DNA from: Shigella phage ESH35
DNA length: 64,000 nucleotides
Strand: one strand, 5' to 3'
Sequence record: ON528745
In this document: in pieces, positions 57,304 through 64,000 of the stretch
How positions within the stretch are numbered: the stretch's first letter is position 1
Layout of the letters: each line of letters opens with the position of its first letter
Made by a program: the position numbers and the translations under genes
The notes under the pieces: generated by a model
Databases searched by the model: none
Seen by the model: only the letters and a program-made list of their open reading frames with translations
What the model was told of the DNA's origin: nothing

Positions 57304-57599
57304 TGAATATTAAAAAGTTTCAAATTGATGGAATTATGAATCAAATCCAGGCATTGGAATATGCCAATAAAATGATGTCAACTAATTGGGGAATTTATGC
57401 CAATGAACCGGTATTTAAGTTCTGTAATATGGAATTCACCAAAAAGCTCGTAGGAAAAGATTATGTATGTCCATTTAGTTCTCCAATAAATGGAATGCTA
57501 AAACCTGCTTTACGCGATCTTTATATTGCGATGAACGAAGAAATGATAAAAGAATTAAAACGTCAACTGAAGGTGATTCAATTTGGCCAGGGAAATTAA
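57303..57599 (+). CDS. hypothetical protein
   Basis: 98-aa ORF. Confidence 0.45.
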   Translation: MNIKKFQIDGIMNQIQALEYANKMMSTNWGIYANEPVFKFCNMEFTKKLVGKDYVCPFSSPINGMLKPALRDLYIAMNEEMIKELKRQLKVIQFGQGN

Positions 57600-57801
57600 T
57601 TCAAAATCTGACTATTTTAATTCTCTCAATGATAAAGATAAAAATCTAATACGGCATTTTATCGTTGAGATGGGATATACTGATACACGTGATTTAAGAG
57701 AACATATATTTGAATGTGGTGTAGCTAAAAAGTTTTCATTCACATGCAAATGTTTAAGAGAGGTAATTCAGCACTATGAACAATTTAGTCGCAAAACATA
57801 A
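57583..57801 (+). CDS. hypothetical protein
   Basis: 72-aa track ORF; start uncertain. Confidence 0.35.
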   Translation: MAREINSKSDYFNSLNDKDKNLIRHFIVEMGYTDTRDLREHIFECGVAKKFSFTCKCLREVIQHYEQFSRKT

Positions 57802-58597: not shown

Positions 58598-59254
58598 TTA
58601 TTTAGCCCTTCCTAATATTCTGGCCGCCTGAGAACATATTGATTCAAGGCGGTCATTACTTATATGATCATTTCTATACCAGTACATGGTTATTGTTCCA
58701 GCATAGATGTTATCCAAATTAAAATATGGACAACTGTACATGTAGTTTATTTCGGGAGTAGGCTTTTTAGTTGGTAAAAAAGCAAATTTTGAGTTGGAAT
58801 AATAATGACGTCCATTTAAATGAACTGTATATTCATCCATAGTTTTATCAACAGGATATCCTCCAAGTGATTTTTCACTTATTGTTGAAGGTAATTTTCC
58901 TTCATATGCTATAACATCAACAAAATAGTTTAAGTTTTTAGGGCGGAAAGAATACACCGCACTAAAGTCTGCCTCAGATGATATGTGAACTATCTGGAGT
59001 TGTTCCAGGGCGACAGATTCAAAGCGTGCATTTCTTTCCTTTTCAATAATTTCACTGTATGTTTCATACTTTGATTGCTTATAGTACTCAAAGAAACTAT
59101 CTCCCCTATACCAAACAATCGCCATCATAAATAAAAGAATTACGACAGCTACCCGGGAAGCAAGAACTTTCCCGGTAGCGTTATCTTTGAACAAGCGATC
59201 TAGAACACCAAATAGAATATCAGAGGGCGAAAATGATATTCTAGGTGCTGCCAT
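58598..59254 (-). CDS. t: holin T
   Basis: 218 aa (T4 T length); N-terminal TM segment VAVVILLFMMAIVWY; AGGAGG upstream. Confidence 0.9.
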   Translation of the reverse strand: MAAPRISFSPSDILFGVLDRLFKDNATGKVLASRVAVVILLFMMAIVWYRGDSFFEYYKQSKYETYSEIIEKERNARFESVALEQLQIVHISSEADFSAVYSFRPKNLNYFVDVIAYEGKLPSTISEKSLGGYPVDKTMDEYTVHLNGRHYYSNSKFAFLPTKKPTPEINYMYSCPYFNLDNIYAGTITMYWYRNDHISNDRLESICSQAARILGRAK

Positions 59255-59284
59255 AGACCCTCCTTTTAAGGATATTTATTCAAA

Positions 59285-60073
59285 TTATACTCTTGGACCA
59301 TATATTGCTCCAACGTTTTGCCATGTCGGTGTAGACCCTATGACGGCATAACCAGCAGCTCCGCCATCGTATTCAGATCCTTGACCACGAATATTACATC
59401 TACCTCCTGCGGAGCCAACTTCGCCACCGCCACCGCCGCTATAGATACCGTTCACAGACCCTGCGCCAGGCGCAGAAATAGTACCAGCAGTTGCTCCTGA
59501 TTGCATATCAATAGATCCGCCCGGTGCGCCAAACGGACGCCCGCCGCCGCCGCCAAAAGTCAATCTCATTTGTGAAAAAGGAGAATAATATCCGCCGCCG
59601 CCACCGCCGCCACCTCCAGCAATAGCTCCGCCATTATTAATTCTTAGTCTCCCACCAATATCGTTTTGAATACAATGACCTCCAGCTGAGCCAGGACTAT
59701 TGCTACCGCCATTACCGCCACGTCCATACATCGTTACGCCGTGTATATTCAACTGAACATATTCATTCGGTGTATCTCCATACATGAAGAATAAAGGAAC
59801 ATCTTTAGAATATGATACTAAATCTCCAGTGATATTAAACACTATAGGTGCACTACCTGCCTCAAAACATCTATCTCGGAACCATTGACCATTGAAGTTA
59901 TGGTCTGCTCCAAGTGTGTGAATTACTTCAACAGATCGACCTATCATATTACTCATCCAAAACGGAATTCCCATTCTCAATCTCTGTGCGGCACCACCCA
60001 TCCAAGGATCTCCAGTCTGTACCCTTGCAGACCATCCTACCCACGGTCCTGTTACTGCCATATAAACCTCCAA
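59285..60073 (-). CDS. 38: T2-type tail-fibre adhesin gp38 with glycine-rich motifs
   Basis: 262 aa; several poly-Gly islands ([39 protein letters not shown]). Confidence 0.8.
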
Positions 60074-60088
60074 GGGGCCGAAGCCCCT
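60073..60088 (-). other. stem-loop in the gene 37-38 intergenic region
   Basis: GGGGCTTCGGCCCC (on - strand) between gp37 stop and the GGAGG RBS of gp38; no U-run on the late strand. Confidence 0.4.
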
Positions 60089-60092
60089 CTTA

Positions 60093-63000
60093 TTATTTTA
60101 ACAATGATTTAACTAATGCTTTAAGTTCTTCAATTTCTGATTTAAGTTCCGCAATTTCTGCAGTATGCTCATTGATTGCAGCTGTATTTAAACCAATTAC
60201 ACCGTTATAGTTCAAACGAAGTAAAGCTTCGCCATCAGGGTCACCTTCAACTAATTCAGGCAAAATAGCTTGAACTTCTTGAGCTATCAAACCGGCGTTT
60301 GGTTCCCATTTCTGATTACCTTCTTCATCTAGGCCTCGCTTCTGCATATAAGTGTAACCATTAATTTTTGAAAGCTTCTCAGAAGCATTTTCAAATTTAA
60401 CGAGGTCTTTTTTAACACGAATATCAGAACGGACATAAACATCACGGACAAACGTTGAATAACTATCATTTGCCTGAACGAGATGCCCATGAGAAACGAT
60501 AGCTCTTCCAACTTCTGTCCAAAAAGCACCGGTTGAATCCCAAAGCCCAGGATGAGATTGATAGCCTGCTCCCCAGTTTGCAATATGTATACCATTGGCA
60601 ACCATATTGATTCGGCCGTCACCGCCATGAACTAACCCAGTGTCATTATCACCAATAACAACGCATGCGCCTGTCCATACAGGGTCACCTCCACCAGCTG
60701 ATAATCTTACTCCAGCTTTAACCATGTCAGGAACGTACATGTTTCCATTATGGTGGAATTCGAAGATAGCTTGCGGATCGCTAGCATTTTCCTGATTACC
60801 TACACGGATAATACCTTGTGCCCAGTTATTAGTAATGCGTCGCATACCGAAATCAACACCAGATACGTACCCTTCATTAGTAATAACAGATTTTCCTTTA
60901 ATAATAGGATAATAGCAGTCATTGCCGACACTACCAAAATCCACAAATATAGGAGCTTCTTGATGCCATTGGTTTCCCCAGTCACCAGCTTGATGCGCAG
61001 TCCATTGAGTCCCATTTATATGGAGACGATCGCAGTTAAAGTTAAATGTTGCAGCACCTTGTGGAATCAGCGCGATTTCACCAATAGAGTTAATTTGCAC
61101 AGCCCCATTGGTTTTATAGTTGTAGAATGATACGGTATTATCAGCGCCGCCTTTACCAATATACCATTGATTTTCTCCACCGCCAGTAGAAAGAAGGTAG
61201 CTTGCATCAGTCGCTGAAGGCGCAGCTAAGTTAATAGCATCAGAATCTCTTCTAATAATCAACTTGCCGGTCATCGTGTCGCCTTCTTTCGAAACACGAG
61301 TCGCAATAGCATCGCGAATATTAGTTACGTCGCCAGCTGAAGTAAACGTTTTCCAGATATCAGACCAGATATTACCATTGCGAGCAATAGTAGCTTCACC
61401 GCCGCCAACAGAAACGTTATCTGGGAAGTTAACAGTACCGTCTTGATTAAAACGAGACGTATGGCCTTGTGAACCATCTTCTTTCAGATGATGAATAACG
61501 AATGTACCCGAATTAATTTCAGTACCTAAAGACCAAACGGATTTACCGTTTAGAAACTTCTGTTTAACAATAGGATAATATTTGCTTACAGCATCGTCAT
61601 CGATTTCCTGGAAAACAGGAGCTGCTTGAGCATATTGAATATCATAACCACCAGCGCCTGCACCATGGCCAACAAATTTAATATAGCCGTTCGCAGTGAT
61701 CGTATTGTATTTTGATTGTAAATCTGGAATAGTAACTTTACCAGTATCTAAAGCCATACTAAACGGGCGAAGTGGACCGATATCGCCATCTTTGCCTTCG
61801 CCATAAGCAGTTGGAATAATATGAAGACTTTCTTCTGAACGTCTAAAAATGGCTCCATAATCTGCGTTCCAAATACGAAGAGCATTCACTGCTCCAGATG
61901 AAATTTCACCTGTTGTGTGAACTCCTCTATCTCCAGCAGTAACACCAGATGATTCAAATGAACCATTAACGTTCATTTCTACTTCACCTGTTGTAAGTCT
62001 TTGAATATAGCTCATCCAACTAGTTGCATCAGAAATTTCCATGACATTTTTACGATTACCTACGCTAGGATTAGTAAACGTGTTACCCCACACGGAAATT
62101 GTCATATTATCAACTGAACTACTACCAGTTGTGTTACCTCTAAACAACAGAGTAGATGCATTGTTGCGGCCGTCAATATTAACCGAACCACCAATAACAT
62201 TAATATCACCTGGAGTAACTAACAAACCGCCTTGAGTATTAATGTTTGTAGTACCCTTACCGCGGAAATAATGATGATAGTTACCGCCTTGGTAATATCC
62301 TAAAAGAGTTTGACCGTCACCATACGCGTTATTATCATGGTAAGTAACAACAGTGGCCAAAGCATAGTTTTCTGTCGGTGGCGTTGTCATAAGAAGCCCA
62401 TCTGGAGAATAAGCCATAACCATTTTTCTAAGGCTTTGCGTTTCTCCTGGGCCATAGATGAAAGTTTTTGTTCCGTTGTTTACTGTATAGAAATATCCAT
62501 CTTGATGCCATTTTAACCCAGTGTCATTATCACCAAGAGCAATTGAGGCAGTCCCTAATTCAGAATATCCTTTTGGACCGCCTGGGGTACCTATAGAAAT
62601 AGAATGACCCGCTTTCAACCCACCGGACCACGTAAACGACCAAAGATAGGCATCTAACCCGTCACCGGCGTACCAGGTTATCCCGTCGTTATCTTTAACT
62701 TCATGGAATATACCAGATCCTACGGCATTTCGCATAACACGGAGGTGGTTAATAGCCGTTTCGCTTTCTGCCAATGGAGTGTTATTTGCTAATGAATAGA
62801 TATCATAATCGCCTGTCTTCTTCCCATTTGTAATAACTTTATCGGTCAGAATTTGTGGAGACGAAATAGATTTCCATGCTGATACTTCAGGTGAAGTAAA
62901 TAGGCCACTGCCTGAAAATGCATAAGTGCTTTCGCTACCAGCGGCGTAGTCTTGAACCCTGATATTAAGTACTTGTGTAGTTAAACCATCATTAGCCGGG

Positions 63001-63407
63001 GCATAAATGATTCCACGTTCGCGACTATTGCCATCGAAAAAACGAACATGCGCTGTACCTGAACTTTTTGTAATAAGTTCTCCGCCTTCAGTCATAATCT
63101 GCCCGGCGGCAATAATATCACGAGTTACTCGAGCAATACCAGTTAAATTAAAATTACCTGTCTGAGTGAATGTGCCATTTAAAGTATAATCGCCAGTTTG
63201 GTTATAATTGCCTGTATGAATAACATTCCCGTCAATATTACCGCCTTTAGCAAAACCCAGATCAATAATATTTCCTTGGTCATCTTTAGTAAAAAGTACA
63301 CGGTCTTTTAAGTTTATAGCCAATTCACCTTCGGCTAATACTGAAGCGGCAGGACGTGCTCCTGCAGTTTTGCTTCTTTTAAATTGTATTTGTTTTAAAG
63401 TAGCCAT
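60093..63407 (-). CDS. 37: long tail fibre distal subunit gp37
   Basis: 1104-aa ORF rich in G/T/N/S repeats immediately upstream of gp38 on the late strand. Confidence 0.85.
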
Positions 63408-63415
63408 AAGTCCTC

Positions 63416-64000
63416 TTAATAATAGCCGAAATCTTGAACAGAATCCTTAATAACAATTTGGTCAAATCGTGGAACATGTGAGGGTTGAGATGCAGGATTC
63501 TGTGAAAAAAGGTTTGGCGCAGTTAAATTTCCTGTCATAGTGTCTCCAGAGCGTAATACCCTAGAGTTTGCGTTTGCTGTAACAATATTTATTGCTCCAT
63601 CAACATAATCTTTCCGCGTAAGGTCATAATTATTTACTGGTGATAACGAAGTTACACGGATTTGTGATGCTTCAATTACGCCCTTTGAGCTAATATCTCC
63701 ATTTCGTGTGTTAATTACTACAGTTCTACCTGCTGTTCCTTGTGATGATTTAAAACCAATACCATACCACGAAACAATATCCATATTTGTAGTATCATAC
63801 GTGGCACTATCACCAGGACCAGCAAAAATACCATTATCGCCTGACCCTGCGCCAGGAACAGTCATTCCTTTATTAAAAATTACTTTATTTAAATAAGTAC
63901 CACCATTAGCTTTAGAAACGAAATCGTTATCTGCAGCTTGTGGTTTATTATATTCTGAATATATTTTAAATGATTTATAGAGTACATCGTCACCGGCTGG
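63416..64000 (-). CDS. 36: tail fibre protein gp36, 5' end outside window
   Basis: Track ORF 63416..63865; I read the frame as open past the track ATG to the window edge. Confidence 0.65.
   Translation of the reverse strand, partial: PAGDDVLYKSFKIYSEYNKPQAADNDFVSKANGGTYLNKVIFNKGMTVPGAGSGDNGIFAGPGDSATYDTTNMDIVSWYGIGFKSSQGTAGRTVVINTRNGDISSKGVIEASQIRVTSLSPVNNYDLTRKDYVDGAINIVTANANSRVLRSGDTMTGNLTAPNLFSQNPASQPSHVPRFDQIVIKDSVQDFGYY

Follow-up and report, generated by a model that had tools for sequence, protein, structure and literature searches.

Which receptor does the long tail fibre of Shigella phage ESH35 (ON528745) use to recognize its host? The initial annotation of our window, a 64,000-nucleotide stretch of this record, described the locus as a T2-type receptor-binding module with a glycine-rich gp38 adhesin on a 1104-aa gp37. 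We find it very probable that the module is the distal receptor-binding end of a long tail fibre of the Tequatrovirus (T-even) type, in which a T6-subtype gp38 would cap a self-cleaving gp37 and bind the receptor Tsx.

Gene order and the start of gene 38

The fibre genes lie on the minus strand in the order 36-37-38-t, collinear with RB27, FL23, T6, and T2. Gene 37 (60093-63407), which encodes the precursor of the distal long-tail-fibre subunit, is an ORF of 1104 aa (phrog_1699, E=0). Only the 3' part of gene 36, the hinge/distal connector (63416-64000; Pfam Phage_T4_gp36, 7e-28), is present before the window end cuts it, and its position is syntenic with that in RB27, T6, and T2. The gene 38 tail-fibre adhesin (59285-60061) sits between gene 37, directly upstream, and the holin gene t, downstream (58598-59254; Pfam Phage_holin_T, 5e-117), as in RB27, T6, and T2. 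Gene t serves as the end marker of the fibre module. The best nucleotide match of the module is ESh32 at 95%, and over window positions 30000-54000 (24 kb) the best match reaches ~96%.

The spacer between genes 37 and 38 (60062-60092) contains a UUCG-tetraloop hairpin (60073-60088) and a GGAGG Shine-Dalgarno sequence (60067-60071). The GGGGCUUCGGCCCC hairpin gave an RNA fold of -17.8 kcal/mol (z = -2.3), and its stem was also picked up on the opposite strand by a terminator scan. The exact late promoter TATAAATA was absent in and near the module, with two copies in the entire window, and a late-promoter scan allowing one mismatch returned matches at chance level, as did the sigma-70 promoter and terminator scans.

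Gene 38 had been credited with 262 aa, which is what its open frame (59285-60073) gives when counted from a TTG at 60073. Translation from this TTG would be consistent with the reach of the open frame and with the length of T2 gp38, also 262 aa. However, the TTG has no Shine-Dalgarno sequence of its own and overlaps both the GGAGG and the foot of the GGGGCUUCGGCCCC hairpin, the first position of the Pfam Gp38_N profile falls on residue 5 of the ORF, and the extra residues of T2 gp38 are internal insertions with no N-terminal extension. Since the GGAGG lies 5 nt upstream of an ATG at 60061 and three close homologues (the gp38 proteins of RB27, FL23, and ESh32) are annotated from the homologous ATG at 258 aa each, we chose the ATG over the TTG. 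This is almost certainly the true start, giving a product of 258 aa that ends at the stop codon at 59285-59287; the equality of the 262-aa ORF with T2 gp38 is a coincidence. A TTG start is thus very improbable, and we rejected it on the Gp38_N start, the homologue annotation, the position of the Shine-Dalgarno sequence, and the hairpin.

gp38 belongs to the adhesins and not to the T4-type chaperones

The gene name and position are shared with T4 gene 38, and over its residues 1-640 gp37 has 35% identity with the distantly homologous T4 gp37 shaft. Both points would fit a reading in which gp38 is a T4-type assembly chaperone, absent from the virion, with receptor binding left to gp37 itself. 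Searches with the family profiles for adhesin-type gp38 (T2/T6/S16; Pfam PF05268/PF21721, curated cut-offs) argue for an adhesin: gp38 matched GP38 at 1.5e-70 (237.9 bits, cut-off 25) and Gp38_N at 5e-20 (71.6 bits, cut-off 25). It also matched the solved PP01 gp38 RBD (PDB 9v85) at 1e-80 and, over residues 1-255, S16 gp38 (PDB 6f45_D) at 1.6e-48, and it falls in phrog_2056 (1e-108), which PHROG labels "tail fiber protein; host specificity". T4 gp38, on the other hand, is assigned to phrog_105 ("tail fiber assembly") and is an unrelated protein, with no similarity to our gp38 in BLASTP (E=1.3). T4 gp37 has a receptor-binding needle of its own and no S74 domain; the gp37 described here lacks the T4 C-terminal needle and has an S16-like tip and an S74 chaperone instead. 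The BLASTP result and PHROG assignment effectively refute a T4-type chaperone, the chance of which we consider negligible, and the adhesin architecture proposed in the initial annotation holds.

As judged from its sequence, gp38 is an adhesin of the T2/T6/S16 class, for which "T2-type" is correct as a class name only. Its homology to two solved adhesins, 6F45 and 9V85, points to the fold: gp38 would adopt a polyglycine-II sandwich, and one monomer would sit on the tip of the virion gp37 trimer.

Domain layout and glycine islands of gp38

The N-terminal attachment domain (residues 1-40; 59942-60061) contains the Gp38_N match and three tryptophans, W7, W20, and W35, which are invariant in a 5-way gp38 alignment and align to W7, W20, and W35 of S16, whose Trp residues slot into pockets of the gp37 trimer (PMC6851490). 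It is followed by a central β-helix region (residues 41-112; 59726-59941), assigned from the homologous S16 and PP01 structures (PMC6851490); this region is identical to RB27 and FL23 at 72/72 residues and to the PP01 RBD at 71/72. In the C-terminal specificity domain (residues 113-258; 59288-59725), five glycine-rich motifs, all conserved (GRM1-5), separate four hypervariable segments (HVS1-4), as seen in both the alignment and the segment table, and a conserved C-end follows. Across this domain, the segment table records no difference from RB27.

Glycine accounts for 24% of gp38 and 34% of residues 113-258. Besides many GG pairs, there is one run of nine glycines (residues 149-157; 59591-59617) and two of five (residues 170-174 and 209-213; 59540-59554 and 59423-59437). 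Since glycine runs of at least four occur nowhere else in the 64-kb window, in any of its six frames, these runs are not due to chance, and the poly-Gly islands that had been noted between the variable segments are confirmed.

The S16 gp37(3)-gp38 complex (PDB 6F45) and the PP01 gp38 RBD (PDB 9V85), which show full-length homology, keep the three interface tryptophans, and align in their glycine-rich motifs, provide the model for capping and loop display (PMC6851490, PMC12892980). Both phages are OmpC binders, however, and have HVS loops unrelated to ours.

The hypervariable segments are of the T6 subtype

When the variable segments were aligned with adhesins of known specificity, all four were T6-type and unlike those of T2, RB32 (an OmpA binder), and PP01. 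HVS1 (residues 119-143; 59633-59707) is identical to T6, RB27, and FL23 at 25/25 residues, compared with 12/26 for T2, 19/25 for RB32, and 17/27 for PP01. HVS2 (residues 158-169; 59555-59590) matches RB27 and FL23 at 12/12 and T6 at 11/12, but RB32 at only 3/13 and T2 and PP01 at 0/12. For HVS3 (residues 183-208; 59438-59515), identity is 26/26 to RB27, 23/26 to FL23, and 21/26 to T6, falling to 6/26 for T2, 7/26 for RB32, and 7/27 for PP01. HVS4 (residues 221-232; 59366-59401) is identical to T6 and RB27 (12/12) and nearly so to FL23 (11/12), with 3/12 for T2 and PP01 and 1/12 for RB32.

Identity to T6 (MH550421), the Tsx-binding archetype, thus sums to 69/75 HVS residues; the GRMs are identical, gp38 is 85% identical overall, and the receptor we predict is that of T6. 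T6 differs in the gp38 attachment domain, which is identical at 20/42 positions with a 2-residue indel, and in gp37, which has 994 aa and is 26% identical outside the N-terminus and S74 motif. T2 (MH751506) shares the adhesin family, the domain plan, and a gp37 with an S74 chaperone and the same cleavage motif, but its gp38 is 49% identical overall, its receptor is FadL/OmpF, and its gp37 of 1341 aa is 35% identical. On these sequence comparisons, gp38 is assigned to the T6 and not the T2 subtype. The "T2-type" label therefore stands for the adhesin class and fails for the subtype, and we rejected a T2 subtype (FadL/OmpF) on the low HVS and overall identity.

gp37 carries an S74 chaperone and an S16-like tip

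The length and coordinates given for the 1104-aa gp37 were correct, but its resemblance to T2 is confined to the first 50 residues and the S74 domain. Its lineage is that of RB27 and ESh32, with 97.3% amino acid identity to ESh32 and 93.6% to RB27, against 35% to T2 and 26% to T6. A divergent patch in the shaft (62300-62830) was considered for an unusual origin, which we rejected, as gp37 genes from other coliphages match the patch at 92-94%.

Residues 913-1104, comprising the tip and chaperone, align to 6f45_A at 7e-44. The distal tip that would carry gp38 (residues 913-993; 60429-60671) aligns to the S16 gp37 tip (PDB 6f45_A), and gp37 residues 951-1000 show 100% identity with FL23 and ESh32 and 80% with RB27. 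The intramolecular chaperone (Peptidase_S74; residues 994-1104, 60096-60428) is recognized by Pfam PF13884 (1e-12), whose match spans residues 994-1053. The gp37 proteins of T2, T6, RB32, RB27, FL23, and ESh32 have in common the motif VY(V/I)RSDxR(V/L)K, which aligns to S16, and gp37 is predicted to be cut before Ser994, releasing the C-terminal chaperone. The Ser994 site is deduced from motif conservation only. PMC3157838 reports that gp37 of the T2/T6 type is cleaved C-terminally.

Tsx is the most likely receptor

We predict Tsx, the E. coli nucleoside channel, as the primary receptor of gp38 from its T6-type loops and its identity to RB27 gp38 from residue 33 onwards (100% over residues 33-258), and the sequence makes this the most likely assignment. 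RB27 and other T6-like adhesins are stated to recognize Tsx in PMC3157838, where the RB27 assignment rests on one statement and a table. FL23 and FL44, whose gp38 proteins are 97% identical to ours, lose infectivity on tsx deletion (PMC12032242).

That the variable segments set the receptor, as the initial annotation held, agrees with published domain swaps and receptor-deletion tests (PMC3157838; PMC12032242; bioRxiv 10.64898/2026.04.02.716166). A gp38 swap from HVS2 onwards switched the receptor, and the RB51/RB68 HVS3 substitution Q206L turned OmpF into OmpW specificity (bioRxiv 10.64898/2026.04.02.716166). Since single HVS3 substitutions can switch the receptor, subtype-level similarity is by itself no proof of it. 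Despite the T6-like loops, the phage could use a different or additional receptor: OmpA, LPS, or a Yersinia protein like the dual-receptor phage PST, or OmpF/FadL like T2. According to PMC3157838, the specificity of PST is broadened by a small number of point changes in its T6-like HVS2 and HVS3, three substitutions adding OmpA use, and RB27-like phages plate on Yersinia pseudotuberculosis at low frequency; our gp38 departs from T6 at 8 positions within residues 113-258 and from RB27 in its attachment domain. However, the positions that separate PST from T6 (Q167, M168, and G208, T6 numbering) are in the T6 state, residues 33-258 are those of RB27, reported as Tsx-dependent, and the HVSs of T2, RB32, and PP01 share little with ours, from 0/12 (HVS2, T2 and PP01) to at most 19/25 (HVS1, RB32). 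The concern over receptor switching is reduced because the whole specificity domain is identical to RB27, and we consider another receptor improbable, with Tsx remaining the preferred assignment. Separately, the N-terminal 32 residues of gp38 and the gp37 tip differ from RB27, which counts against Tsx by RB27 analogy, and PMC3157838 speculates that N-terminal sequence might influence specificity.

The fibre region is a fine mosaic

Sequence comparisons show the fibre region to be a fine mosaic built from known alleles. RB27 (KM607000) has the same gene order, the same gp38 and gp37 lengths (258 and 1104 aa), and an entirely identical gp38 β-helix and specificity domain, but differs by 8 substitutions in gp38 residues 10-32 (32/40 identical over residues 1-40), in the gp37 tip noted above, and in scattered divergent shaft patches. 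FL23 and FL44 (PP400787, PP400790), which are Tsx-dependent, have the same gp37 tip and a gp38 attachment domain identical at 39/40 residues, but carry 7 substitutions in gp38 HVS3, GRM4, HVS4, and the C-end, and their gp37 residues 701-800 are at 44-56% identity. A look-up of the exact 258-aa gp38 sequence in public assemblies found none on record. The adhesin could be an unrecorded natural chimera, with FL23-type residues 1-32 inherited together with the FL23/ESh32-type gp37 tip and joined to the RB27 specificity domain, and with a host range possibly unlike RB27; we think this unlikely. If the pairing of attachment domain and tip, or the differences from T6 in the specificity domain, alter the Tsx variants or extra receptors used, host range may differ from RB27 despite identical loops.

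Proposed mechanism and significance

The analysis establishes the order of the genes, the families and domain layout of their products, the adhesin subtype, and the mosaic ancestry. Cleavage, capping stoichiometry, and Tsx binding are proposed from homology with the S16 and PP01 structures and from published receptor tests on phages with identical or near-identical adhesins. In the proposed mechanism, the 1104-aa gp37 would trimerize with the aid of its own intramolecular chaperone, the C-terminal Peptidase_S74 domain, which would then be removed before Ser994 to leave a 993-residue fibre. The exposed tip would be capped by one copy of the 258-aa gp38, whose helical N-terminal attachment domain would insert its three tryptophans, all conserved, into the gp37 trimer, and the C-terminal domain would use a glycine-rich scaffold to display four hypervariable loops.

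None of this biology is new: the gp38 architecture and its receptor code are already established, as are the self-cleavage of gp37 and the mosaicism of tail fibres. The module is ordinary and well studied, and although its exact gp38 sequence is unrecorded, it is nothing new in kind. It governs the first step of host recognition, and its subtype gives a testable receptor prediction, Tsx, which is useful for choosing phage cocktails and for anticipating resistance via tsx loss.

Gene order and the adhesin character of gp38

Four genes are read in turn from the minus strand across 58598-64000: gene 36, present only as its 3′ portion (63416 to 64000, where the window ends), gene 37 (1104 aa, 60093-63407), a 262-codon gene 38 ORF (59285-60073) and the holin gene t (58598-59254). 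These coordinates and the gp37 length agree exactly with the initial annotation, which had proposed a T2-type receptor-binding module with a 262-aa glycine-rich gp38 adhesin on gp37, the distal long-tail-fiber subunit. Upstream, the plus strand carries gp52, motA, arn.4, arn.3, arn.2, an arn.1-like ORF, arn, asiA.1 and asiA, as in other T-even phages. A 72-aa ORF (57583-57801, plus strand, TTG start) matches phrog_4452 ("anti-restriction nuclease") over its full length and appears to occupy the arn.1 slot. RB27, T6, T2 and RB32 differ from the window in how this slot, between arn.2 and arn, is arranged.

The glycine islands ascribed to gp38 are real: G9 spans residues 149-157 and G5 residues 170-174 and 209-213, GG pairs are numerous, and glycine makes up 34% of the specificity domain (residues 113-258). 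No other run of at least four glycines occurs in the 64-kb window, whichever of the six frames is read. Local GC reaches 48-53% (51% at 59250-59750) against 35% for the window, and the plus strand there shows strongly negative GC skew; the GGN glycine codons of the specificity domain fully explain this, so the GC rise is no sign of foreign origin.

Profile searches matched gp38 to GP38 (PF05268, E = 1.5e-70), Gp38_N (PF21721, E = 5e-20) and phrog_2056 ("tail fiber protein; host specificity"). It also matched the PP01 gp38 receptor-binding domain (PDB 9V85, E = 1e-80) and, over residues 1-255, full-length S16 gp38 (PDB 6F45 chain D, E = 1.6e-48), which is anchored in the gp37 trimer by three tryptophans (PMC6851490), kept here as W7, W20 and W35. 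The initial annotation named a match to the T4-type chaperone as the outcome that would refute it, and we compared the two proteins directly: BLASTP found no similarity to T4 gp38 (E = 1.3), which belongs to a different family, phrog_105 ("tail fiber assembly"). This effectively rules out the chaperone, and the adhesin reading stands.

The gp38 start codon and possible regulatory signals nearby

The first possible start of the 262-aa ORF is a TTG at 60073, which overlaps a GGAGG Shine-Dalgarno sequence (60067-60071) serving an ATG at 60061. Since position 1 of Gp38_N aligns with ORF residue 5, and the homologous ATG is the annotated start of the 258-aa gp38 in each of RB27, FL23 and ESh32, we rejected the TTG and assign gp38 a length of 258 aa (59285-60061), four codons shorter than first annotated. 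The same TTG is at the base of a UUCG-tetraloop hairpin, GGGGCUUCGGCCCC (60073-60088, minus-strand RNA; -17.8 kcal/mol, z = -2.3), that separates the g37 stop from the g38 Shine-Dalgarno and may stabilize the RNA or modulate g38 translation. The exact late-promoter box TATAAATA is absent from the module and occurs only twice in the 64-kb window, against about 10 expected by chance. The 30 nt separating g38 from t contain, at 59273-59280 (minus), AATAAATA, which departs from the T4 late-promoter box at one position and shortly precedes the gene t Shine-Dalgarno. Scans for generic promoters and terminators gave matches at chance level.

Receptor subtype of gp38

We aligned gp38 with adhesins of T6, RB27 and FL23 (Tsx), T2 (FadL/OmpF), RB32 (OmpA/LPS) and PP01 (OmpC), delimiting glycine-rich motifs and hypervariable segments (HVS) by the scheme of Trojet et al. 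(PMC3157838). Identities to T6, T2, RB32 and PP01, respectively, were 25/25, 12/26, 19/25 and 17/27 in HVS1; 11/12, 0/12, 3/13 and 0/12 in HVS2; 21/26, 6/26, 7/26 and 7/27 in HVS3; and 12/12, 3/12, 1/12 and 3/12 in HVS4. By these identities the T2 subtype is rejected in favor of T6.

Single HVS3 substitutions can switch receptor, as with Q206L in RB51/RB68 (bioRxiv 10.64898/2026.04.02.716166), so confidence in a receptor call requires identical sequence; resemblance is not enough. Such identity exists with RB27, a characterized phage reported to use Tsx (PMC3157838): its gp38 and the window protein agree at every residue from 33 to the C-terminus, which includes the whole specificity domain, and differ only by eight substitutions within residues 10-32. 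FL23 and FL44, whose gp38 is 97% identical, depend on Tsx, as deletion mutants revealed (Lutz et al., PMC12032242), and the three positions that distinguish PST (dual Tsx/OmpA) from T6 remain in the T6 state. Together, these sequence comparisons make Tsx the best receptor prediction.

Lineage and predicted processing of gp37

Past the first 50 residues, gp37 resembles neither T2 (35% identity overall) nor T6 (26%); its first 640 residues share 35% identity with the T4 gp37 shaft. The 1104-aa proteins of Shigella phage ESh32 and RB27 are 97.3% and 93.6% identical, respectively, and by sequence gp37 is of the RB27/ESh32 lineage. Residues 450-550 form a Gp34_trimer-like segment, and an alignment with the S16 gp37 construct of 6F45 covers residues 913-1104 (E = 7e-44). 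A Peptidase_S74 intramolecular-chaperone domain starts exactly at Ser994, in a motif (VYVR/SDIRVKKD) conserved in T2, T6, RB32, RB27, FL23 and ESh32; the conserved serine is the self-cleavage site of S74 domains. Cleavage before Ser994 would yield a mature protein of 993 residues and free a 111-residue chaperone. In T2/T6-type phages, C-terminal processing of gp37 reportedly precedes gp38 capping (PMC3157838).

Mosaic ancestry of the module

Sliding 100-nt comparisons with ESh32, RB27 and FL23 revealed that g37-g38 (59255-63415) is a fine-scale recombination mosaic, with tracts of 100-1000 nt near-identical to each in turn. The tract 61515-60417 is near-identical to ESh32, 60016-59917 in the gp38 attachment domain is FL23-like, and 59916-59255 is RB27-identical; one of the junctions interrupts the attachment domain near residue 32. 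A gp37 shaft patch (62300-62830, approximately residues 195-370) is unlike all three, with 8-31 mismatches per 100 nt, and is closest to Escherichia phage phiC120 (94%); it is a further imported segment. At the gp37 tip (residues 951-1000), as in the attachment domain, the sequence is of FL23 type, a pairing that fits physical contact of the tip with gp38; since ESh32 breaks this pairing, the linkage is loose.

The exact 258-aa gp38 had no record in the assembly collection searched, and the module had no match above 95% among phage records. The initial observation is confirmed with the four-codon correction, and its interpretation is supported, refined to a T6/RB27 (Tsx) subtype with an RB27/ESh32-lineage gp37. 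Altogether, the g37-g38 module amounts to no more than known alleles in a new arrangement. It is a textbook T-even phage component whose kind, and in essence whose sequence, was known before.
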